Part shown: piece by piece, positions 2,978 through 50,188 of the stretch | How positions within the stretch are numbered: the first letter of the stretch is position 1 | Layout: the number at the start of each line of letters is the position of its first letter | Sequence record: OR352942.1 | Strand: one strand, 5' to 3' | DNA length: 64,000 nucleotides | Origin: Escherichia phage AV112 | Translations under genes and position numbers: made by a program | The notes under the pieces: generated by a model | The model's database searches: none | Seen by the model: the letters and a program-made list of their open reading frames with translations, nothing else | Told to the model about the DNA's origin: nothing

Positions 2978-5689
2978 TCAAAAATCGAACATATCGAACA
3001 GAGATGCTTTCTTCTCGTAATCGAGTTTCGCTGCTGATGTGAATCCTTCAAGTGGTTTAATAAATGTCTTCTCAAGGAGAACAGTGTAGTCCATCCAATG
3101 AAGTACGTCGTCTTTAATTAAATCTGTGATTTCAGTACCAGAAGGCCATGCGATACATTTATCACCGAATGGGTTTCCTTCACGTAAAGGCAGAACATAT
3201 ACTTTTTCACCTTCTACAACTTGTGGTGCATCGATATTACCTTTGATAGCACGGTTATACGTCAGAATTCCACGAATATGGAATGGGCATTTAGGACCAG
3301 GGAATCCACCTACATCATATTTAGCAATGTTATTCGCAGAAGATACTGACGCGATGCTAATATAATTCAATTGACGGAATTCTTTTTCAAACTCTTTAAA
3401 ATATTCTTGTAATGATTCTTCGCCTTCCTGAAGCATACGACGAATACATTCTTTAAGAGCTTTCTGTACTGCTTTAGGAGTCGAAGATTTCTGAGTCTCT
3501 AGACCCATGATTTTGAGTTTAGGCTCAGCGTATCTGGTTCCTTCCATATCCCACACGTTTAATGCATAACGTTTCTTACCAGTCCAGAATCCACCAATAC
3601 CTTTAGAACCGAGTGGAGGCCCAGCGATAGCTTCTCGGTCCATGAACATTAAGTGTTGTTTATTGTTCATGTATTCACACATTTCACGGAAACCTCTATC
3701 AATAGCTGGTTCCATACGTTCACGTGCAAACTTATCTAAGAAGTCTACCCAATGGTTGGTATCACGGAATTTAGATTCACCAACCTTATCGATAATTTTA
3801 TCAGCAGATACGTAAATAGAGTCTGTATCACCATAAAGAACGAAAGCTTCACCTTCTGTGCCACAAACTTCATTCAGATATTCATTAACTTTACGTTCAA
3901 TCCACTGTAAAGCCATTTGCCCGAATGTTGTGATTGCAGTAGCATTACGCAAATCGTAATAACGGAACCAAACGTTGCCAAGTGCACCATAAAGTGAGTT
4001 GATAAGCAATTTACGGTTAATTTGGGCAGTCATACCTGCAACTTCAGTACGTTGAGCTCTAAACAACATTTCATTAAGAGATTTAGCAGACAACTTTTTA
4101 ATCTTTTCTTTAATCTCATCACTGAAGTCGAAACGATAATCAACATCTAATGGTTCGTCAACAGAAAGATTAGGATTATGCAATGCCTCTTTAATTATTT
4201 CACCATTACGTTGAGCTGCAAGCATGTAACCTTTATGTTCTTTACGTTGATTAAAGACCTTAGTGATTTCAGTTGGAACAACACCGTCACGGTCTTTATA
4301 ATACATCATGCCGTTAGGAGAACAACTGTACACATCAGAAGGACGTTCAGCAACAGCGTTAATATAATCATGTAATGGAGCTACTTTAAACGTTCCTGCT
4401 ATTGTTTCTGGGCTAATATTCACTTGGCGAATAATACTTGGATACAGAGATGTAAGGTCGAAACTCATTACATATTTGTATCGATTTGGAATAGGTTCCT
4501 TAACAAAAGCGCCGGGATAAGGTTGAACCGGATGAGAACGACCTTGTGGAATCACCTTGTTCTGCTCTTTAAGGCTATTAAAAATAATAGCATCCCATGT
4601 TTTAATTGGGCTAAACACAGATTGAATCTGTATCTTAGCATAATAACCCATGTCCAAACTCAAGTTGATGAACTGACGTTTAGCATCAATTTGCAATACA
4701 CGATACACGTCGATAATGTTATAAGAAATATATCGTTGGTGATTGCTTTCACGAAGCTTAGAAATAGGGCCGTCATATTTCAGTTTACCAACGTTCAATT
4801 CAAATTCTGAAATGTAATCCAGAGAATACGACGGTTGATTGGTAAAAGAGAATTTTTTGTAAAGGTCAATGTAATCAAGAACAGAGATACCGAACAATGT
4901 AATGATTTCACGAGAACCATACATGTTTTCGATAACTTTAACACGAGTTTTACGATGTGGTGATAAACGTTTCGCAGTAGATTCGCCAAAAATATTCTTG
5001 ATTCGGTTATACACATATGGAATATCAAATGACTCAACGTTCCATCCAGTCAAAATGACAGGAGTTTTCTGTTGCCAGAAGTTGAGATATTCCATCAACA
5101 ATTCTTTTTCGTTATCGAACGGCATATAAATGATTTTATCGATAATTTCGGATGGGACTTCATCACCGCCTTGTTCTTGAAGCTTAGCCGCAATTTCGAT
5201 AGACCATTCTTCCACATTCCCGTATGGAGAATTCAAAAGGTCAAATACGTAGAACCTGTCGTCAATTGAGTCATAATGAGTGATAGCATCAATCGGATGT
5301 TTTGCTTGTGACGGCTCAGGGAACCCGTCTGGAGATGTTACTTCGATGTCGAAGTTAGCCACACGAATTTTTGTATGGTCGTATTTGATTTCATAGTTAT
5401 AAGTGTCAGACAAATACGCCAATTTGAAATCGTCCATGCCAAGTGCTTCAAGTCCGATATCTTCCATGCGTTTAATCCATTGGGAGGCATCACGCATATT
5501 GGCGAACAACTTACGAGTACACGGCTTACCGTAGATATCGAAATATTTCGTAGCCTGACTTTCCGGACAATGAGCAAACAGTGATGGTTTATATTCTACT
5601 TCACGAGTACGTTCACGGCCGTTAGAATCGATGTAACGTTCAAAAATTGAATCACCAATCTGTTCAACCGTTAAGTAAAATTCTTTCAT
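2978..5689 (-). CDS. 43: DNA polymerase gp43 (family B)
   Basis: 903 aa, starting MKEFYLTVEQIGDSIFERYIDSNGRERTREVEYKPSLFAH; collinear with recalled T4/RB69 gp43, with exonuclease and polymerase motifs such as YGDTDS. Confidence 0.97.
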   Translation of the reverse strand: MKEFYLTVEQIGDSIFERYIDSNGRERTREVEYKPSLFAHCPESQATKYFDIYGKPCTRKLFANMRDASQWIKRMEDIGLEALGMDDFKLAYLSDTYNYEIKYDHTKIRVANFDIEVTSPDGFPEPSQAKHPIDAITHYDSIDDRFYVFDLLNSPYGNVEEWSIEIAAKLQEQGGDEVPSEIIDKIIYMPFDNEKELLMEYLNFWQQKTPVILTGWNVESFDIPYVYNRIKNIFGESTAKRLSPHRKTRVKVIENMYGSREIITLFGISVLDYIDLYKKFSFTNQPSYSLDYISEFELNVGKLKYDGPISKLRESNHQRYISYNIIDVYRVLQIDAKRQFINLSLDMGYYAKIQIQSVFSPIKTWDAIIFNSLKEQNKVIPQGRSHPVQPYPGAFVKEPIPNRYKYVMSFDLTSLYPSIIRQVNISPETIAGTFKVAPLHDYINAVAERPSDVYSCSPNGMMYYKDRDGVVPTEITKVFNQRKEHKGYMLAAQRNGEIIKEALHNPNLSVDEPLDVDYRFDFSDEIKEKIKKLSAKSLNEMLFRAQRTEVAGMTAQINRKLLINSLYGALGNVWFRYYDLRNATAITTFGQMALQWIERKVNEYLNEVCGTEGEAFVLYGDTDSIYVSADKIIDKVGESKFRDTNHWVDFLDKFARERMEPAIDRGFREMCEYMNNKQHLMFMDREAIAGPPLGSKGIGGFWTGKKRYALNVWDMEGTRYAEPKLKIMGLETQKSSTPKAVQKALKECIRRMLQEGEESLQEYFKEFEKEFRQLNYISIASVSSANNIAKYDVGGFPGPKCPFHIRGILTYNRAIKGNIDAPQVVEGEKVYVLPLREGNPFGDKCIAWPSGTEITDLIKDDVLHWMDYTVLLEKTFIKPLEGFTSAAKLDYEKKASLFDMFDF

Positions 5690-10835: not shown

Positions 10836-11697
10836 TTAAATTTTTCCTCATGAATTCAGAAACTAAAGCCTGTAAAGAACTTTGTATAGGATATCCTAAA
10901 TTGACTAAATTTTTAGAAAAAGTCACATATTTAGGTTTGTTCATTTTAACCCATTCATCGTAAAGCATATCAAAATTTTCCCAATGATATCCTTTTCTTC
11001 TAGATTTCAAATGAGTGTCTCTAACTTTAGGATTTTTCCAACTGCGTGAAACTCCAGCCGATAATGATTCTCTATATTCGGCTGTTTTAGATATTTTACG
11101 ACAAGCATCCAAATGTTTTTGTTTATTAATAGGGTCACTAAACCACTTTTGGGTCATAATAGAGACGGTTTCTTTAAATTCCTTTGAACTTGTCATAATT
11201 CTGTGTTTCTTTAAATTTTCCGGATTTTTAAACCATGCTTTTAAAGCTTGACTAATCTTAATTCTATTATCCTGATTGGAATAGTATAATGTCATTTTTA
11301 TAGAATTAACTTTACAAACATTTTCGAATTCTAAAGAATACGCCTCGGCTATATTATTTAGTTCATGCGTTGTACAATTTAAATTAAATCGCCCGGTATA
11401 CATTCTTTGAAGCGCGTTAATCATCTTGTGGTTGCCAGTTTTTGCCAAAATGCTATGTGCAATAAAATGGTTATAATGACTTAAATGACACAAGTTCCAT
11501 TTACATGTTTTAAAATCTGGAAAAATAGATTTTGGTAGTATATGGTGAACCTGAGTCAGTCCTTTTACTTTATTAGTTGAATTAGTTTTTATAAAGTTTA
11601 AATACTCATCAAGTCCTTCCCACGAAGGGAAGGAGGTTTTAAGAATTTTATAAATTTGAGTTTCATAATCAGTCTTCGTCATTATACGCGTCCTCAA
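10822..11697 (-). CDS. HNH homing endonuclease (free-standing, Mob-like) with NUMOD-type DNA-binding repeats
   Basis: HNH core QVHHILPKS...CKWNLCHLSHYNHFIAH, followed by repeated WFKNPE / WFSDP / WKNPK helix motifs. It is inserted between 46 and 47 and overlaps the gp46 start by 14 nt. Confidence 0.8.
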   Translation of the reverse strand: MRTRIMTKTDYETQIYKILKTSFPSWEGLDEYLNFIKTNSTNKVKGLTQVHHILPKSIFPDFKTCKWNLCHLSHYNHFIAHSILAKTGNHKMINALQRMYTGRFNLNCTTHELNNIAEAYSLEFENVCKVNSIKMTLYYSNQDNRIKISQALKAWFKNPENLKKHRIMTSSKEFKETVSIMTQKWFSDPINKQKHLDACRKISKTAEYRESLSAGVSRSWKNPKVRDTHLKSRRKGYHWENFDMLYDEWVKMNKPKYVTFSKNLVNLGYPIQSSLQALVSEFMRKNLSENI

Positions 11698-15218: not shown

Positions 15219-15264
15219 TTTATTATCCAATGAGAGCATTATACTCTGCTCTCAAGAGTTTGTA
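15219..15264. repeat. 46-bp exact direct repeat, copy 1 (second copy at 45853..45898)
   Basis: tttattatccaatgagagcattatactctgctctcaagagtttgta occurs identically at both sites, each about 20 nt upstream of a minus-strand start codon. Confidence 0.8.
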
Positions 15265-15266
15265 AA
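15238..15266 (-). promoter_or_regulatory. Sigma70-type early promoter inside a 46-bp repeat
   Basis: Minus strand reads TTTACA, a 17-nt spacer, then TATAAT; the -10 hexamer sits in the loop of the palindrome TGAGAGCA/TGCTCTCA. Confidence 0.55.
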
Positions 15267-15269
15267 TCG

Positions 15270-15929: not shown

Positions 15930-16278
15930 TGCGTTTGATAAAATTCACTTCACTTACTGAAAGGTCTTTAAGACCGATTGATTCTAAACGCTGAGTAAGC
16001 GTCAACATCGGGATATAGTCCCAATGTGTTTTAGACGTTTGATAAGTACGGGCGCCATTAGCAATTTCAACGTTCAAATCAGAAATGGTAATGAATACCA
16101 GACGTTCGTTGTTTACATTAAGAGTTAGAACAACTTTCTTCGAATTCAGACTAATCATTTTGTTTTCCTCTATAGTAGATGGTTTAATCTTAACACATCT
16201 ATTGAGGATGTAAACTGTTTTATGAAAATATTTTCGATTTGAGAGGGGCACAAGGAGATAGTGAAGTGAAGATTCCAA
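15910..16278 (-). CDS. Hypothetical protein
   Basis: 122 aa ORF. Confidence 0.45.
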   Translation of the reverse strand: MESSLHYLLVPLSNRKYFHKTVYILNRCVKIKPSTIEENKMISLNSKKVVLTLNVNNERLVFITISDLNVEIANGARTYQTSKTHWDYIPMLTLTQRLESIGLKDLSVSEVNFIKRIVSINL

Positions 16279-26483: not shown

Positions 26484-26510
26484 GTTTTACCTCCAGTAGT
26501 TGATAGGTCT

Positions 26511-26539
26511 ATAATAACACAACCATAGACCTTGTAAAC
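26511..26539 (-). promoter_or_regulatory. Sigma70-type early promoter
   Basis: Minus strand reads GTTTAC, a 17-nt spacer, TATTAT, then AGACCTATC. Confidence 0.55.
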
Positions 26540-27969: not shown

Positions 27970-27986
27970 TTCGTTTCGATAGGTCT

Positions 27987-28015
27987 ATAATAACATGTTT
28001 AAAGCAAAAGTAAAC
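27987..28015 (-). promoter_or_regulatory. Sigma70-type early promoter
   Basis: Minus strand reads GTTTAC, a 17-nt spacer, then TATTAT. Confidence 0.55.
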
Positions 28016-28236: not shown

Positions 28237-28344
28237 TTTGTTCTCCTCTTGTTTTGATAGGTCTATAATAACATATCCTAAAAGCATGTACACTACTTTT
28301 TAAAAATATTTTAACCCCCTAAAGGGACCCGAAGGTCCCCACAT

Positions 28345-30657: not shown

Positions 30658-31216
30658 ATTATTCACCAATTAAAGTTTCAACAAAATTCACCAAAGCATT
30701 CTGGCAAGCATCAACCTGATTTTCATAAAAGTCTCCGTTATCATTTACCGCATGATAAGCTACATCATTCAAATCTGAATCGGCTTCACGTAAGTCACGG
30801 ATAAGGTCCATCAATTTATTAGCTTGTTCACGGGTCATTTTACCATACTCGTTTCAATAAGATTCACTATGCCGTTTACCATGTTATAAGTAAACATCGG
30901 ATAATTGTATTGTACTACAACATAAGCGATAAGCAAAAGTTTCATTTTGTTCTCCATTTGTTTTGGTAGGATTACTATATCATAGTCCTACCAAGACGTA
31001 AACTACCGATTGTGTTTTAAATGTTGATAAAGTTCTTCAACTTGTTTAGGGTCCAAAACAATTAAGTCATTTTCTTGGCGAAGATAAATCCATCCCTTAT
31101 CCCCAGGGCCATTTTTACAAAACATCACCACCGTATCATCATCTTCAGCGCTTTCAGGTAAAAGTTCAAGTACACCGTCTTCAGATTTTCCAGTATAATC
31201 GTAAAGCATAATGTCC

Positions 31217-31396
31217 TCACATAATCTCGTTAACATACATTTGTAATTCGGTGTGGGCTTCGGCCATCTTTTTCATAGCTTTGTTAATGTCGATGTCTCC
31301 ATCTTCGCATCCATGAGCATTTTCCCAATCAGATACCGCATTAGCGTACTCTTCAATCAAAAACATTAACTTAGAAATTTTTTCTTTACGTGTCAT
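31217..31396 (-). CDS. Small hypothetical protein
   Basis: Start placed at MTRKEKISKL, preceded by GAGGAGAACGTT-ATG. Confidence 0.4.
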   Translation of the reverse strand: MTRKEKISKLMFLIEEYANAVSDWENAHGCEDGDIDINKAMKKMAEAHTELQMYVNEIM

Positions 31397-31462
31397 AACG
31401 TTCTCCTCTAGTAAGTAAAGACTACTATAACACAACCTGAGGAGAAGTAAACTGCTAAACGC

Positions 31463-31490
31463 AAAAAAGCCCCAACCATAAGGAAGGGGC
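31463..31490 (-). terminator. Rho-independent terminator (minus strand), copy of a recurring hairpin
   Basis: Plus strand reads aaaaaa-GCCCCAACC-ataa-GGAAGGGGC; it lies downstream of rI. Confidence 0.6.
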
Positions 31491-31497
31491 TAGTAAA

Positions 31498-31800
31498 TTA
31501 GATAGATGTAGGCTCTAATTTTATTTTCATGAACTCGGCAAATTGTCTGGCAGTTTTTATGCCTTGTTCATGACATTCAAATGCATCATCACAGGGGCTA
31601 TTTTTGTAATGCTTTGCCATATACTTATAGAATTTTTCAGAATTCTCGACATTTTGAATTTCAAACAAAGTATATACGTTTTTAATCCCTGATTCCATAA
31701 AGTTATCAAAATATGGGTCGGTATACGCAGTACCAACGTTAGGAGTTGTTGCTGCAAAAAACCCCAGCATCGCCATGACAGCTATCGCTCTTAAGGCCAT
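31498..31800 (-). CDS. rI: Lysis-inhibition regulator rI
   Basis: 100 aa with a signal anchor; MALRAIAVMAMLGFF...DPYFDNFMESGIKNVYTLFE resembles recalled T4 rI; it sits adjacent to tk as in T4. Confidence 0.75.
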   Translation of the reverse strand: MALRAIAVMAMLGFFAATTPNVGTAYTDPYFDNFMESGIKNVYTLFEIQNVENSEKFYKYMAKHYKNSPCDDAFECHEQGIKTARQFAEFMKIKLEPTSI

Positions 31801-35025: not shown

Positions 35026-35054
35026 TTTTTATTTCTCCTCTAGTTGACAGGTCT

Positions 35055-35083
35055 ATAGTAACACATCTAGAGGAGAAGTAAAC
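35055..35083 (-). promoter_or_regulatory. Sigma70-type early promoter upstream of regB
   Basis: Minus strand reads GTTTAC, a 17-nt spacer, then TACTAT. Confidence 0.5.
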
Positions 35084-37032: not shown

Positions 37033-37274
37033 ATGTTAGGTCCTTCGATTCGCTATGTAAACCCATTACCGCACTTGGGCTCGACCTTATTACAGGTTGG
37101 CGGGAATCCCTCATAGAATCATGAGGTCCAGGTTGTTCCCATGTTATTTGAATGTAAATATTTTTGCCGTAATACTTATACCAGTGTGGCTTCGTTAAAA
37201 TTTTTTCATCGAGTCATTTTACCTCTCCAAGTAATTATGAATATACTATCACAATTTTAGGAGAAAGTAAACTG

Positions 37275-37618: not shown

Positions 37619-38197
37619 TTAATTACCACGGGCTGCATTAGCAACGGCGTAAGCGTACTGAACATTAGCGTCTTTAAACGTACCTTTAGAGGTATCTAGT
37701 TCTGCCTTAAAGCCACCTTTAGCCATAACATCGGCAAATTCTTTACGGAAGGCCATTGCATCAAGACCTTTCCATGATGATTTGTGCTTGGCGAATTCAA
37801 GACCAGCGTAGTTGACAGCCTTAGCTAATTTATTATCAATGACCCATTTACCGGCTTTAGGCACAAACACCGGGCCTTTCTGTTTAGAGAATAGTTTTAA
37901 ATTCCAGCGACGAAGATCACTGTCGGCTTTAACAAAAGCTGCGTCTAAGTTACTAGCAACAACATCTTGAATATGGCCAAATTTAAGCCCATCAACTTCA
38001 ATATTTAAATCGGTACGCCAGCGAAGTCCTTCCCAAGCGAAGGCTTTAAAATCAGAAGCTTTTGTGGCTAGATATCGTTCAAGTGGAGCAGTTTTAGGGT
38101 CAAAGCCGTTACCGCCACGATAAGTCCACTCGTCCTTATTAATGCCTTGAGCTTTTCCTGCAAAGGCCTCGGCGATAAATTCTTTATATGTTTTCAT
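37619..38197 (-). CDS. Internal protein (IP) with capsid-targeting sequence; ipIII position
   Basis: Starts MKTYKEFIAEA; 192 aa. Confidence 0.65.
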   Translation of the reverse strand: MKTYKEFIAEAFAGKAQGINKDEWTYRGGNGFDPKTAPLERYLATKASDFKAFAWEGLRWRTDLNIEVDGLKFGHIQDVVASNLDAAFVKADSDLRRWNLKLFSKQKGPVFVPKAGKWVIDNKLAKAVNYAGLEFAKHKSSWKGLDAMAFRKEFADVMAKGGFKAELDTSKGTFKDANVQYAYAVANAARGN

Positions 38198-38527: not shown

Positions 38528-38941
38528 TTAGTAAATTGATTTACCATAGTATTTGTACCAAGTAGGACGTTGAGCAATTTTTTCATCTAAGCGTGCTTGA
38601 CTTATCGCAATGGACGCTTCGGACGGGACATAATTATTACGAAATTCGGCAGGGATGTCGGAAATATCCTGGACAGTCGTGTCCTTGATTTTGAAACCAC
38701 GTTTCAAGCATTCAGCGATTAGCTCGATTTGTCGTAAACGTAAAAATTCGAGTTTGTCGTAAAAGAATGTTACGTGGCCGGTGCCTAAGATAAATGTTGG
38801 AGAGATTTTAAAATCCTTTACACGTTTACCATTTTGAACATGTTTACGGACTGCACCGAATACACGAGGTAATTCACGATACTCAGCCATAAGATGTTGG
38901 TCGGTCAGTTCAGAAACAAGTGTTAAATTGATACGGGTCAT
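38528..38941 (-). CDS. denV: Endonuclease V (pyrimidine-dimer DNA glycosylase)
   Basis: Start trimmed to [12 protein letters not shown]; near-identical to recalled T4 DenV across its length. Confidence 0.93.
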
Positions 38942-38968
38942 AATTTCCTCCAAGTAGTTGATGAATGT

Positions 38969-38998
38969 ATAGTATCAAAACCCTTGGAGGAAGTAAAC
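38969..38998 (-). promoter_or_regulatory. Sigma70-type early promoter upstream of denV
   Basis: Minus strand reads GTTTAC, an 18-nt spacer, then TACTAT. Confidence 0.5.
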
Positions 38999-41434: not shown

Positions 41435-41740
41435 TTATTTTCCTCGGCATTCTTTAATGAAATTTTCTAGATTGGTAGATTCAATAGCTTTTTTACGAGC
41501 TTCTGCGTGTTCTTCTTCAGACAATTTACATTTATAATTGACCCAGGCATTATGGTCGAAACTAGTCGTGGCATATAATAACAATGCTCCGACGAATAAT
41601 AAAAACGGTGATAAGAATACAAAACCAGGAACACCATCCATATCGTAAGCCTTTTGTAATACTGCAACAGAAAGGGCCGCGTAAAAAGGTGATGCAAATA
41701 TTGTTAAAAGACCAATTCGGTTGGTTTCTGTTAATTTCAT
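41435..41740 (-). CDS. Membrane protein ending in a FIKECR motif
   Basis: 101 aa with two transmembrane helices; ends ENFIKECRGK. Confidence 0.5.
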   Translation of the reverse strand: MKLTETNRIGLLTIFASPFYAALSVAVLQKAYDMDGVPGFVFLSPFLLFVGALLLYATTSFDHNAWVNYKCKLSEEEHAEARKKAIESTNLENFIKECRGK

Positions 41741-41768
41741 ATTATTCTCCTCATGTTTTAATAGGACT

Positions 41769-41798
41769 ACTATAACATAGTCCTATCATGTTGTAAAC
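41769..41798 (-). promoter_or_regulatory. Sigma70-type early promoter with palindromic -10 region
   Basis: Minus strand reads GTTTAC, an 18-nt spacer, then TATAGT, embedded in the inverted repeat ATAGGACTA/TAGTCCTAT. Confidence 0.5.
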
Positions 41799-43047: not shown

Positions 43048-43063
43048 TTAATTTGATAGGACT

Positions 43064-43093
43064 ACTATAACATAGCCCTATCTTGTTGTAAAC
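43064..43093 (-). promoter_or_regulatory. Sigma70-type early promoter with palindromic -10 region
   Basis: Same architecture as the promoter at 41769, with the palindrome TAGGACTA/TAGCCCTA. Confidence 0.5.
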
Positions 43094-45852: not shown

Positions 45853-45898
45853 TTTATTATCCAATGAGAGCATTATACTCTGCTCTCAAGAGTTTGTA
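45853..45898. repeat. 46-bp exact direct repeat, copy 2 (first copy at 15219..15264)
   Basis: Identical to copy 1; contains a TATAAT hexamer in the palindrome loop on the minus strand. Confidence 0.8.
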
Positions 45899-45901
45899 CA
45901 C

Positions 45902-46711: not shown

Positions 46712-46801
46712 AACATTTTCCTATGTTGTTGATAAGTCTATAGTATCATGTCCTTAGAAGAAGTAAACATCTTTATGAAATATTTTTATGCCCTAGATAC
46801 C

Positions 46802-46828
46802 AAAAAGCCCCAACCGTAAGGAAGGGGC
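46802..46828 (-). terminator. Rho-independent terminator (minus strand), copy of a recurring hairpin
   Basis: Plus strand reads aaaaa-GCCCCAACC-gtaa-GGAAGGGGC. Confidence 0.6.
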
Positions 46829-46834
46829 ATTCTA

Positions 46835-47343: not shown

Positions 47344-47371
47344 AAAAAAGCCCCAACCTTTCGGAAGGGGC
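47344..47371 (-). terminator. Rho-independent terminator closing the tRNA/stable-RNA transcription unit
   Basis: Plus strand reads aaaaaa-GCCCCAACC-tttc-GGAAGGGGC. Confidence 0.6.
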
Positions 47372-47423
47372 TATGCCTTGCGGCAACCTTGTCGGGGTTC
47401 CACCTGCTAAGGCAAGTGTTTGT

Positions 47424-47683: not shown

Positions 47684-47759
47684 TGGTCGAGACAGTAGGG
47701 GTCGAACCTACGACCTAGGACTTAGAAGGTCCTTGCTCTTCCTTCTGAGCTATGCCTCG
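47684..47759 (-). tRNA. tRNA-Arg (anticodon TCT)
   Basis: Manual cloverleaf: acceptor CGAGGCA/TGTCTCG, D-arm GCTC-AGAAGGAA-GAGC, anticodon loop CTTCTAA, T-arm GTAGG-TTCGACC-CCTAC, encoded CCA. Confidence 0.85.
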
Positions 47760-47763
47760 GATT

Positions 47764-47838
47764 TGGCGGACATGCATGGATTCGAACCATGGACCAATTG
47801 ATTAACAGTCAACTGCTCTACCACTGAGCTACACATCC
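47764..47838 (-). tRNA. tRNA-Asn (anticodon GTT)
   Basis: Manual cloverleaf: acceptor GGATGTG/CATGTCC, anticodon loop CTGTTAA, T-loop TTCGAAT, encoded CCA. Confidence 0.8.
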
Positions 47839-47842
47839 AAAT

Positions 47843-47929
47843 TGGTTGGGAGTGATGGAGTCGAACCACCTGAGTCGCAATGACAATGGATTTACAGTCC
47901 ACACCGCTACCTCTACGGGATAACTCCCC
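47843..47929 (-). tRNA. tRNA-Tyr (anticodon GTA), long variable arm
   Basis: Anticodon arm GTGGA-CTGTAAA-TCCAT, long variable arm, T-arm GGTGG-TTCGACT-CCATC, encoded CCA; the 5' acceptor boundary is uncertain by 1 nt (a 1:72 mismatch if the start is 47929). Confidence 0.6.
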
Positions 47930-47938
47930 AAATTAATT

Positions 47939-48013
47939 TGGTGGCCCTGGGTGGAATTGAACCACCATCTGGCGATTATGAGTCGCTTGCTTGAACCTTC
48001 CAGCTACAGGGCC
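47939..48013 (-). tRNA. tRNA with CAT anticodon (Ile-lysidine type as in T4, or Met)
   Basis: Acceptor GGCCCTG/CAGGGCC, anticodon loop CTCATAA, T-arm GGTGG-TTCAATT-CCACC, encoded CCA. Confidence 0.8.
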
Positions 48014-48014
48014 T

Positions 48015-48090
48015 TGGTGCTGATTGACGGAATTGAACCACCGACCTTCTCATTACAAGTGAGTTGCTCTACCTACTGAGCTAAATCAGC
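48015..48090 (-). tRNA. tRNA-Thr (anticodon TGT)
   Basis: Acceptor GCTGATT/AATCAGC, D-arm GCTC-AGTAGGTA-GAGC, anticodon loop CTTGTAA, encoded CCA. Confidence 0.85.
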
Positions 48091-48095
48091 AAAAC

Positions 48096-48185
48096 TGGCG
48101 GAGGCGATAGGATTTGAACCTATGAGTCGCCGGAGCGACTGCCGGTTTTCAAGACCGGTGCATTAAACCACTCTGCCACGCCTCC
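48096..48185 (-). tRNA. tRNA-Ser (anticodon TGA), type II
   Basis: Acceptor GGAGGCG/CGCCTCC, anticodon arm CCGGT-CTTGAAA-ACCGG, long variable arm, T-loop TTCAAAT, encoded CCA. Confidence 0.85.
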
Positions 48186-48187
48186 AG

Positions 48188-48261
48188 TCTCCATACAAGG
48201 ATTTGAACCTTGGACCTCCTGATCCCAAATCAGGCGCTCTACCAAACTGAGCTACACGGAG
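48188..48261 (-). tRNA. tRNA-Pro (anticodon TGG)
   Basis: Acceptor CTCCGTG/TATGGAG (C1:G72), anticodon loop TTTGGGA, T-loop TTCAAAT; CCA is not encoded. Confidence 0.8.
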
Positions 48262-48271
48262 TAAATTAAAT

Positions 48272-48345
<74 letters not shown>

Positions 48346-48350
48346 AAATT

Positions 48351-48437
48351 TGGTGCGAGAAGTGGGACTCGAACCCACAAGGAAATCATTCCGCAGCATT
48401 TTAAGTGCTGTGCCTTTACCAATTTGACCATTCTCGC
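48351..48437 (-). tRNA. tRNA-Leu (anticodon TAA), type II
   Basis: Acceptor GCGAGAA/TTCTCGC, anticodon arm CAGCA-CTTAAAA-TGCTG, long variable arm, T-arm GTGGG-TTCGAGT-CCCAC, encoded CCA. Confidence 0.85.
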
Positions 48438-48438
48438 G

Positions 48439-48511
48439 CTGGGAATAAAGGACTCGAACCTTTGCATCCTGGAATCAAAATCCAGTGCCTTACCAACTTG
48501 GCTAATTCCCA
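48439..48511 (-). tRNA. tRNA-Gln (anticodon TTG)
   Basis: Acceptor TGGGAAT/ATTCCCA (U1:A72, typical of Gln), anticodon loop TTTTGAT, T-loop TTCGAGT; CCA is not encoded; only 1 nt separates it from tRNA-Leu. Confidence 0.85.
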
Positions 48512-49466: not shown

Positions 49467-49524
49467 TTTATTCTCCTCTGTAGTTGATAGGGTAATAGTA
49501 TCACTACCCCATCTAAAAGTAAAC

Positions 49525-49797
49525 TCATTTTAAATAAATTGCGTATTTTTTATAGCCACCAGGCTCGTGTCGAAGACCCTTATCATTAGCAAAACGCTCA
49601 ATGTTGTTAATTTGATTCTGGTCAAGTTCAGAGATGTCAAACACGAAATAGTTACGTTTGTTACCAACTGTTACATAGTCAGTTAAATCAATACCATATA
49701 GGTAATTGATGTCAGCAATCATAGTCTTGACAGCTTTGCTAATTTTTACTTTTTCGTTAAAAGTAGCTTCATTGATAAATTCTTTAAATGTTTTCAT
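49525..49797 (-). CDS. Internal-protein-like protein with capsid-targeting sequence
   Basis: Starts MKTFKEFINEA. Confidence 0.55.
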   Translation of the reverse strand: MKTFKEFINEATFNEKVKISKAVKTMIADINYLYGIDLTDYVTVGNKRNYFVFDISELDQNQINNIERFANDKGLRHEPGGYKKYAIYLK

Positions 49798-49828
49798 TTT
49801 ATTTTCTTAATTAATTTTGATAGGACCT

Positions 49829-49858
49829 ACTATAACATAGTCCTATCAACATGTAAAC
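49829..49858 (-). promoter_or_regulatory. Sigma70-type early promoter with palindromic -10 region
   Basis: Minus strand reads GTTTAC, an 18-nt spacer, then TATAGT, within TAGGACTA/TAGGTCCTA. Confidence 0.5.
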
Positions 49859-49860
49859 TA

Positions 49861-50124
49861 TTAAATACCTGCTTCGCGCTTAACATAAGCAACATAAGCT
49901 TCGATAGCTTTCTTGCTGGTAATTTTTACCTGACCGCGTCCGTTGCCTTCTTTAGAGTTTTTCTTAACAACTACATTACCATCTTTAACACCCCATACAT
50001 GGACATAAGTACCGATGTTTCGGTCGTAGAACATTGCATGGTCGTTGTTGTAAGAGAATGATTCGTAGTTCTCTGTCAGAGTAGAAGATTGAGATTCAGC
50101 GATAAATTCTTTATACGTTTTCAT
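49861..50124 (-). CDS. Internal protein, ipI position
   Basis: Starts MKTYKEFIAES; adjacent to 57B as in T4. Confidence 0.6.
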   Translation of the reverse strand: MKTYKEFIAESQSSTLTENYESFSYNNDHAMFYDRNIGTYVHVWGVKDGNVVVKKNSKEGNGRGQVKITSKKAIEAYVAYVKREAGI

Positions 50125-50158
50125 TTTATTTCCTTGAGGTCGTTTATTTGATAGGATG

Positions 50159-50188
50159 ATAGTAACACACCATCATCCTTATGTAAAC
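50159..50188 (-). promoter_or_regulatory. Sigma70-type early promoter
   Basis: Minus strand reads GTTTAC, an 18-nt spacer, then TACTAT, within the palindrome AGGATGATGG/CCATCATCCT. Confidence 0.5.

Follow-up and report, generated by a model that had tools for sequence, protein, structure and literature searches.

The closest described relatives of the element considered here are the promoter-early stem-loop (PeSL) cassettes of RB49/phi1, PST/T4 and nt-1/KVP40 (Arbiol, 2010, PMC2839356; Comeau, 2014, PMC4122927). Their stem-loops lie mostly in the interval from the -35 to the -10 box or across the -10 box (PMC2839356), the cassettes are concentrated in hyperplastic regions and have been implicated in modular shuffling (PMC2839356; PMC4122927), and one RB49 stem-loop behaved as a strong terminator in a lacZ test (PMC2839356). 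At the internal-protein locus of T-even phages, elements composed of T4 early promoters and weaker, AT-rich stem-loops of variable size were reported (Repoila, 1994, as summarized in PMC2839356), and in the passage of Arbiol et al. that deals with them the T-even elements are termed analogs, not homologs, of PeSLs (PMC2839356). The long transcripts that reach the T4 genes e, soc, 49 and I-TevI from upstream are translationally silent owing to a hairpin that sequesters the Shine-Dalgarno (SD) sequence (PMC3014915). The early promoters of RB69 were predicted by Nolan et al. (2006, PMC1524935), whose paper makes no mention of palindromes or stem-loops, and neither RB69 nor any other Mosigvirus was analyzed in the PeSL papers (no mentions in the 2010 text, PMC2839356). 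Here we analyze the early promoters of a 64-kb stretch of Escherichia phage AV112 (sequence record OR352942.1), the whole of which is referred to as the window, and in particular the cassette at 41759..41798 (minus strand) and its relatives, in which the -10 box is enclosed in a hairpin. With confidence that is about evenly balanced, we regard these elements as T-even/RB69-type PeSL cassettes, in which the hairpin would act at the RNA level at cistron boundaries and the repeated sequence would provide homology for shuffling.

Hairpin-Bearing Early Promoters of AV112

The ~3-kb piece around positions 41761-41790 displayed 99.7% identity to Escherichia phage AV113 and 95% to RB69 (genus Mosigvirus), and by sequence the window is assigned to an RB69-like Mosigvirus of the T4 type. 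As judged from how RB69 and T4 are annotated over the syntenic stretch, the minus strand from ~13 to 53 kb constitutes a large early, hyperplastic region, where genes 47/55 are followed by nrdC, tk, regB, denV, the internal-protein genes, e and the tRNAs, and then by 57, 1, 3 and 2; the late baseplate genes occupy the plus strand from ~53.7 kb on. The motif GTTTAC-N16-19-TANNNT was found in the window 23 times against 4.1 matches expected, 22 of the 23 being on the minus strand; all the 21-23 early-promoter hits lie on this strand between 15 and 50 kb, with none on the plus strand. The curated set comprises 21 minus-strand early promoters of the window. They are intergenic, of the sigma-70 type (-35, -10), and are followed by an SD and a start codon. 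In the cassettes an A-rich element precedes GTTTAC, after which come a 17-18-nt spacer, TGn, TAnnnT and CCT-A(+1)TCAAA, the stretch before GTTTAC being A/T-rich (e.g., cacaaaact, ctaaaaca, atttaata, cacaaaaca).

Nine of these promoters hold the -10 box inside a hairpin (class A; -10 positions 50164, 49834, 49500, 45877, 43069, 41774, 30979, 26516 and 15243), five have a spacer whose 5' end pairs with the SD of the downstream gene (class B; 38974, 37248, 35060, 31429 and 16192), and seven contain nothing significant. The class A cassettes are very strong sigma-70 early promoters. The one at 41759..41798 reads GTTTAC aacatgATAGGACTAtgt TATAGT AGTCCTAT, with the -35 box at 41798-41793, an 18-nt spacer, TGn and the -10 box TATAGT at 41774-41769. 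Its hairpin (5' arm 41788-41777, 3' arm 41770-41759) has a folding energy of -15.3 kcal/mol (z -5.4), and the start is predicted at the A in position 41762, as inferred from the T4/RB69 promoter logos. This promoter, the ortholog of RB69 Pe:67959, drives the open reading frame 41435-41740 (minus strand).

Direct reading confirmed the description, given in the initial annotation, of four minus-strand sites which share GTTTAC, an 18-nt spacer and TATAGT or TACTAT within an inverted repeat. All four also carry the TGn of an extended -10 box (GTTTAC-N18-TGnTATAGT/TACTAT) and are orthologs of RB69 Pe:67959, Pe:69254, Pe:76812 and Pe:77187. The repeat at 41761-41788 is a perfect 9-bp one (ATAGGACTA/TAGTCCTAT), as had been stated, while that of the 43055-43093 site has the core ATAGGGCTA/TAGTCCTAT with one G·T. 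Near 50150 an inverted repeat does exist, but instead of the 10-bp arms reported there it comprises 8 Watson-Crick pairs (AGGATGAT/ATCATCCT), the 10-bp arms containing one mismatch, or G·U pairs in RNA. The family, put at four members at least, is larger, as the nine class A promoters demonstrate, and its arms are not one common sequence. A second sub-family with TATTATAGACCTATC, placed at four sites, is exact at 26502-26516, 27978-27992 and 28256-28270, but at 35046-35060 it has two mismatches.

Selection for Complementarity of the Hairpin Arms

The complementarity of the hairpin arms is selected. Folds of the class A sites range from -13.4 to -16.1 kcal/mol with z values of -3.7 to -6.4, and none of 200 shuffles was as good (eight sites tested). 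The 40.5-kb early region contains 41 strong local hairpins, nine of which have a promoter -10 box inside, whereas such segments make up ~1.8% of the sequence, which corresponds to a ~12-fold enrichment of strong hairpins at promoter -10 boxes. Energies of -8 kcal/mol or lower were obtained for 9 of the 21 promoters (43%) versus 9% of the left/right chimeras, with none of 5000 permutations as good.

The nine class A stems are built of at least six unrelated arm sequences, including ATAGGACTA, AGGATGAT, GGTAGGA, AGGTCTAT, TGAGAGC and GGGGTA. Orthologous promoters were found by scanning the syntenic parts of RB69, T4 and JS98 with position weights, and the arms there include TGATGAGGTA, TTGACAAGATT and TGGGACC, with complementarity retained. 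The ipI promoter, whose flanks are orthologous, has the arms GATAGGACTA/TAGgTCCTATC in AV112 versus TGATGAGGTA/TACCTCATCA in T4, and the mobD.2a-like promoter GGTAGGA/TCCTACC versus TTGACAAGATT/AATCTTGTCAA. At the trna.4 promoter T4 keeps the right arm, and the left arm is situated 6 nt further upstream (ATAGGGT/ACCCTAT). The TGAGAGC/GCTCTCA cassette appears in JS98 in the versions TGGGACC/GGTCCCA and GAGGAC/GTCCTC, i.e., with compensatory changes in the arms, and the JS98 site orthologous to 41774 has the arms AGGTCTAT/ATAGACCT. Thus, conservation of the palindromes at orthologous promoters, a point raised in the initial annotation, holds for the palindromic property and fails for the sequence, which fits a structural element and speaks against a sequence-specific operator.

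The two arms are not equivalent. The segment CCT-A-TC-AAA (-3 to +6) is present in nearly all early promoters, including 27992, 28270, 38233 and RB69 33317, which possess no left arm, and a preference for C at -3 to -1 was reported for the RB69 early promoters (PMC1524935). The right arm CCTATC belongs to the promoter itself, and since it also occurs in promoters without a left arm, the variable, selected part is the spacer plus positions -6 to -4. An independent set was obtained by scanning IMG/VR for GTTTAC-N15-TGN-TANNNT-NNN-CCTATC, a pattern that constrains neither the left arm nor positions -6 to -4; the scan yielded 82 distinct promoters, those of Acinetobacter T4-like phages included. 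Half of them (50%) fold at -8 kcal/mol or below compared with 17% of chimeras, and 39% at -12 kcal/mol or below compared with 2.7%. In 17 of the 82 promoters all three free positions form Watson-Crick pairs with -17 to -19 (register -23), the mean over 1000 permutations being 3.4 and the maximum 10; a weaker pairing signal was detected in registers centred near -14. In the gapless alignment A1, with a helix of 10 pairs, 48 cells were changed on both sides versus 23 +/- 7.6 in shuffles, none of 500 of which reached 48, and 52.8% of the cells were paired versus 32-41% with the partners slid.

Proposed Role of the Hairpin in Read-Through RNA and Possible Mobility of the Cassettes

The left arm of the hairpin is located in the spacer, and the right arm begins with the final base of the -10 box and extends to ~+2. 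With the predicted +1, an A 7 nt past the -10 box, as the reference point (again taken from the T4/RB69 logos), the 5' arm occupies ~-25 to -16. Being upstream of the promoter's own start, it is missing from the locally started transcript, so that the hairpin can arise solely in read-through RNA or in single-stranded DNA. We infer that the hairpin acts in RNA and has its role there. Part of the spacer (~-25 to -16) is selected to complement the segment -7 to +3, and the hairpin would form solely in RNA read through from an upstream promoter, where it would most likely mark the cistron boundary and may either attenuate read-through or shield the upstream message at its 3' end. The cassette, being repeated, would double as homology for modular gene shuffling.

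In the 82-promoter set, 39 of the 41 hairpin promoters fold more stably on the sense than on the antisense strand, and internal pairs of the outer stem are G·U in 12 cases versus A·C in one, an excess which, as a signal of RNA-level action, is suggestive only. The stop codon of the upstream gene falls -1 to 12 nt before the -35 box of the class A promoters. A separate GC-rich hairpin stands upstream of three hairpin-less promoters (46745, 28270 and 21517) and of the class B promoter 31429; small as these numbers are, such a distribution fits a boundary role shared by both arrangements and packed into the promoter in class A. A canonical terminator, AGCCCCTTCCTTAYGGTTGGGGCTTTTT, forms a repeated cassette with three copies on the minus strand (31467-31500, 46801-46834 and 47348-47381), two of them just upstream of the early promoters 31429 and 46745.

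Class B follows the same logic of read-through versus local start and provides the clearest hint for RNA-level action. In these promoters the spacer begins with 8-11 nt (TTCTCCTC...) that complement the downstream SD region. Spacer-SD pairing of -10 kcal/mol or lower was found in 12 of 48 promoters of AV112, T4 and JS98 versus 7.9% of cross-pairings (0 of 5000 permutations), and covariation is seen outside the SD core (CTCTAG/CTAGAG, CTGTAG/CTACAG, CCAAG/CTTGG). Read-through RNA would thereby hide the ribosome binding site, which would remain free in RNA started at the promoter. The class B arrangement, known from T4 e, soc, 49 and I-TevI, can work only in RNA.

As regards mobility, a cassette lies no more than 15 nt from the end of a homology block in 8 of 50 cases for T4 (2.2 expected) and in 8 of 52 for JS98 (2.3 expected), the expectation being derived from random points not limited to intergenic DNA. 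In JS98 a different gene follows the promoter orthologous to 41774, i.e., a gene replacement has taken place. The 45-nt cassette is present in 336 phage records, and a Mosigvirus genome holds 6-11 copies. A near-identical cassette, GTATAC aagcgGATAGGACTATGTTATAGTAGTCCTATCaaaacaaatgaggagaacaaaATG, is present in Escherichia phage vB_EcoM-LTH01 of the Vequintavirinae (L005 601-695 / L009 31510-31580), as one copy in 50 kb, between unrelated genes. The flanking genes had no homolog among the compared T4-like loci, so this copy was not carried in with a T4-like gene; the sequence suggests a transfer of the bare cassette between phage families, or else strong convergence. An IMG/VR search with the 101-aa protein encoded downstream of the 41774 promoter returned two near-identical loci only; on these contigs (L001 and L002; 120,938 and 121,442 bp) the copy of the protein is 96-97% identical and the cassette is present.

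At 37210-37272 (minus strand) a strong early promoter and SD are followed by ATGACTCGATGA (Met-Thr-Arg-stop), the first codons of denV. Compared with T4, ~350 nt of denV are missing at 37210, which marks a deletion joint, and a full denV with its own promoter is situated at 38528-38998. The segment looks like a degraded cassette left behind by recombination.

Several observations weigh against the RNA-level boundary and shuffling roles proposed above. No U-tract follows the class A hairpins (the T fraction at +4 to +6 is 0-0.05), the consensus downstream being AAAA-rich, the same as in hairpin-less promoters, and no class A hairpin was called by terminator scans of the AV112 window or by TransTerm on RB69. 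Given the lack of both a U-tract and terminator calls, canonical intrinsic termination is unlikely. The stems, which contain 3-5 G·C pairs, are modest, and half of the early promoters carry no hairpin at all. The count of G·U versus A·C pairs is small and biased by selection toward G·U, and in a small second set it was 0 versus 2. The asymmetry between sense and antisense folds results partly from pairing of the G/T-rich TGn region with the -10 hexamer, and, both elements being constrained by promoter function, that share of it may be incidental. The enrichment of breakpoints, too, may merely reflect their falling between genes. A literature search found no published maps of T4 transcript 3' ends. 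A terminator acting on the opposite strand was rejected, as no T-run follows the hairpin on that strand at the four sites read.

Alternative Explanations

The initial annotation, correct as to a promoter family with the -10 box in an inverted repeat, had read the palindromes as operators, which would bind a dimeric phage or host repressor occluding the -10 box and shutting the promoters off. A dyad across the -10 box, and generally across the core promoter, is indeed the classic operator layout, as in lambda, LexA and lac O1; the arm GATAGGACTATGTTATAGTAGTCCTATC recurs nearly unchanged in many phages; and how T4 early promoters come to be shut off ~3 min into infection still lacks an explanation, neither AsiA nor ModA accounting for it according to reviews (PMC3014915; PMC2988021). 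However, no conserved half-site is found, the unrelated arms of AV112 being joined by further ones in T4, JS98 and IMG/VR with complementarity kept, and the dyad centre moves between register -23 (~-11.5) and registers -28/-29 (~-14 to -14.5), with a weaker signal at -25. G·T pairs are tolerated and the G·U-type signal is strand-biased, CCTATC without a left arm is a promoter element and not a half-site, and no cognate protein is known for the class A palindromes, no candidate having been sought. Moreover, all early promoters are shut off, whereas the hairpin is present in only ~40-50% of them and thus represents no general shut-off site. On these grounds repressor binding appears very improbable: the evidence excludes a sequence-specific operator and is compatible with recognition of structure. 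The hairpins might be programmed substrates of a structure-specific activity, either cleavage of single-stranded DNA by gp46/47 or endonuclease VII or a shut-off factor recognizing structure, to which we attach little probability; if true in its cleavage form, each cassette would be a recombination hot spot driving gene shuffling, even between phage families. Finally, the palindromes could have no function, being inherited with duplicated cassettes or arising by chance from conserved promoter sequence. Near-identical copies (41774, 43069 and 49834; 15243 and 45877) are consistent with duplication or gene conversion, but the diversity of the arms, the compensatory changes in orthologs and the significant covariation at unconstrained positions render this explanation hardly credible.

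Two further explanations place the effect in DNA. In the first of them the inverted repeat forms a single-stranded hairpin or small cruciform that is cut by gp46/47 (SbcCD-like) or endonuclease VII, and the cutting starts recombination at the cassette, thus driving the modular shuffling proposed for PeSLs. The ends of homology blocks above chance, the gene replacement in JS98, the degraded cassette with the 3-codon denV remnant at a deletion joint and the cassette between unrelated genes in the Vequintavirinae phage are all in line with such a hot spot, which is compatible with the RNA-level reading, the two not being exclusive. Yet homologous recombination requires the repeat alone and not the dyad, breakpoints at gene boundaries are expected regardless, and the G·T bias of the sense strand is not expected of a symmetric role in DNA. 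The arms are short (8-12 bp) and the loops measure 3-8 nt, which makes for poor cruciform extrusion. We consider the hot spot unlikely as the explanation of the dyad; cruciform extrusion as the main mechanism was rejected because of the short arms. In the second one, complementarity between the spacer and the start region would tune binding of RNA polymerase, melting, escape or the response to ADP-ribosylation by Alt. In an open complex the promoter region -25 to -16 remains duplex. The left arm would thus be unavailable for an intrastrand hairpin, and such a hairpin in the open complex was rejected as the main mechanism on this general knowledge of the polymerase. Covarying arbitrary arms likewise argue against direct readout of bases, and the core elements are equally good in hairpin-less promoters. 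In favor of a promoter-intrinsic effect, T4 early promoters hold conserved information beyond the -35 box, TGn and the -10 box, and stimulation by Alt is not explained by these elements (PMC2988021); also, the loop coincides exactly with the extended -10 box in the register that occurs most often. On balance, such an effect seems quite unlikely.

Comparison with Described Systems

The AV112 cassettes have much in common with PeSLs: the early promoter is intergenic, with A/T-rich DNA upstream of it and an SD and start codon after it; a stable stem-loop is located in the interval from the -35 to the -10 box or across the latter; many copies occur in hyperplastic early regions beside small genes of unknown function; and differences between related genomes (insertions, deletions, replacements) may be associated with the cassettes. 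They differ from the RB49/phi1 elements, which are composed of TTGACA promoters and stems of G- and C-runs, in their GTTTAC promoters and AT-richer stems, and display no sequence homology to that type. The RB49 element terminated in a reporter, whereas the AV112 stems lack a U-tract and are not called as terminators, and according to the figure legend the stem-loops of PST/T4 are found immediately upstream of the promoter, whereas in AV112 they enclose the -10 box. The only features not found (TTGACA, stems of G/C-runs, demonstrated termination) are those of the RB49 sub-type, and the AV112 elements count as members of the PeSL kind. With intrinsic terminators they share a stem-loop at the end of a cistron, and they differ in the A-rich sequence, without a U-tract, after the stem.

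The elements of the T-even internal-protein locus, as characterized in the summary by Arbiol et al., resemble those of AV112 in their GTTTAC early promoters, AT-rich stem-loops and adjacency to internal-protein genes, and two of the four sites noticed initially (49834 and 50164) drive genes of internal head proteins. Unlike them, the AV112 cassettes also occur at nrdC.8-, mobD.2a-, trna.4- and RB69 ORF133/135-like and other genes. Three paralogous genes on the minus strand (49861-50124, 49525-49797 and 37619-38197) start with MKT(Y/F)KEFI, the leader of internal head proteins, and each has its own early promoter cassette, two of these being of class A.

In common with T4 e, soc, 49 and I-TevI, the AV112 promoters are located inside a hairpin that upstream transcripts can fold and local ones cannot, since the start predicted from the logos is placed such that local transcripts miss the 5' arm. 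In the T4 genes the internal promoters are late or middle ones and delay expression, whereas that of AV112 is early. The class A 3' arms stop at +2/+3, 11-34 nt before the ATG, and contain neither SD nor start codon; sequestering of the SD is found in class B only. In RB43, about ten TransTerm terminators with stems of 8-9 bp fall within the 51-nt windows assigned to predicted early promoters (PMC1524935 supplements), e.g., Pe:4005 with 3977-3995, Pe:11463 with 11434-11454 and Pe:95419 with 95389-95409. The layout with a promoter-embedded stem-loop is the same there, the stems being strong enough for terminator calls.

Individual Cassettes

All the cassettes listed below are on the minus strand. 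The class A cassette at 43055..43093, the ortholog of RB69 Pe:69254, has its -35 box at 43093-43088 and its -10 box at 43069-43064; the arms GATAGGGCTAT (43082-43072) and GTAGTCCTATC (43065-43055) form a stem with an internal G·U (-16.0 kcal/mol, z -6.4). The cassette at 49817..49858 (-35 box 49858-49853, -10 box 49834-49829) stands upstream of an ipI-like internal-head-protein gene, and its hairpin (49849-49817; -14.0 kcal/mol, z -3.8) is formed by ATAGGACTA/TAGgTCCTAT with one bulged G. A second internal-head-protein gene follows the cassette at 50153..50188, the ortholog of RB69 Pe:77187, with the -35 box at 50188-50183, the -10 box TACTAT at 50164-50159 and the arms AGGATGATGGTG/TACTATCATCCT (dyad centre ~-14; -15.4 kcal/mol, z -4.8). 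The cassette of the trna.4-like gene (49486..49524) has the arms GATGGGGTAGTG/TATTACCCTATC (-16.1 kcal/mol, z -5.0). At 45861..45901 the -10 box TATAAT is in the loop between the arms TGAGAGCA/TGCTCTCA, and a second copy of this pair of arms is located 30 kb away, at 15227..15267; these two cassettes are identical (aaactcttgagagcagagTATAATgctctcattggataataaa) and have weaker -35 hexamers, ATTTAC and GTGTAC. The mobD.2a-like cassette (30963..31003) has the arms GGTAGGA/TCCTACC (-14.4 kcal/mol).

In the second sub-family, the cassette at 26505..26539 is of class A, with a 17-nt spacer, the -10 box TATTAT and the arms AGGTCTATGGT/ATTATAGACCT, its hairpin being centred at ~-14.5 (-13.4 kcal/mol, z -4.6); in its T4 ortholog (nrdC.8) the spacer pairs with the SD instead. 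The TATTATAGACCTATC promoter at 27978..28015 forms no hairpin (minimum free energy 0.0), and that at 28256..28293 has no significant one, a separate GC-rich, terminator-like hairpin being located upstream, at 28313-28329.

Among the class B promoters, at 35033..35083, upstream of the regB-like gene, the spacer pairs through its 5' end, TTCTCCTCTAG, with the SD region CTAGAGGAGAA (duplex energy -18.4), and at 38945..38998, upstream of denV, TTCCTCCAAG pairs with the SD-containing CTTGGAGGAA (-17.5), the pairing in the T4 denV counterpart being CTCCTGTAG/CTACAGGAG. The SD is likewise paired at 31388..31452 (TTCTCCTC with GAGGAGAA) and at 16166..16215 (CCTC..TAGATG with CATCTA..GAGG). The promoter at 37222..37272 is class B-like and is followed only by the 3-codon remnant ATGACTCGATGA. 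The early region also harbors a cluster of ten tRNAs (47687-48511, minus strand), two being annotated in the matching region of the RB69 record and eight in T4; the Rfam search returned these ten tRNAs only, with no match at the hairpins.

Implications

Taken together, the AV112 cassettes represent a known kind of element, the PeSL, in a lineage not analyzed before, and not a new kind of system. Quantitative covariation extends the PeSL concept to the RB69/Mosigvirus, T4, Dhakavirus and Acinetobacter T4-like lineages, and defined sites are supplied for testing the function of the stem-loops. Classical operators are removed as a candidate for the unsolved shut-off of early promoters. The spacer of an early promoter is not free: in about half of the T-even-type early promoters it is selected to pair with the start region or with the ribosome binding site, so that RNA coming from an upstream promoter would fold differently from RNA started locally.

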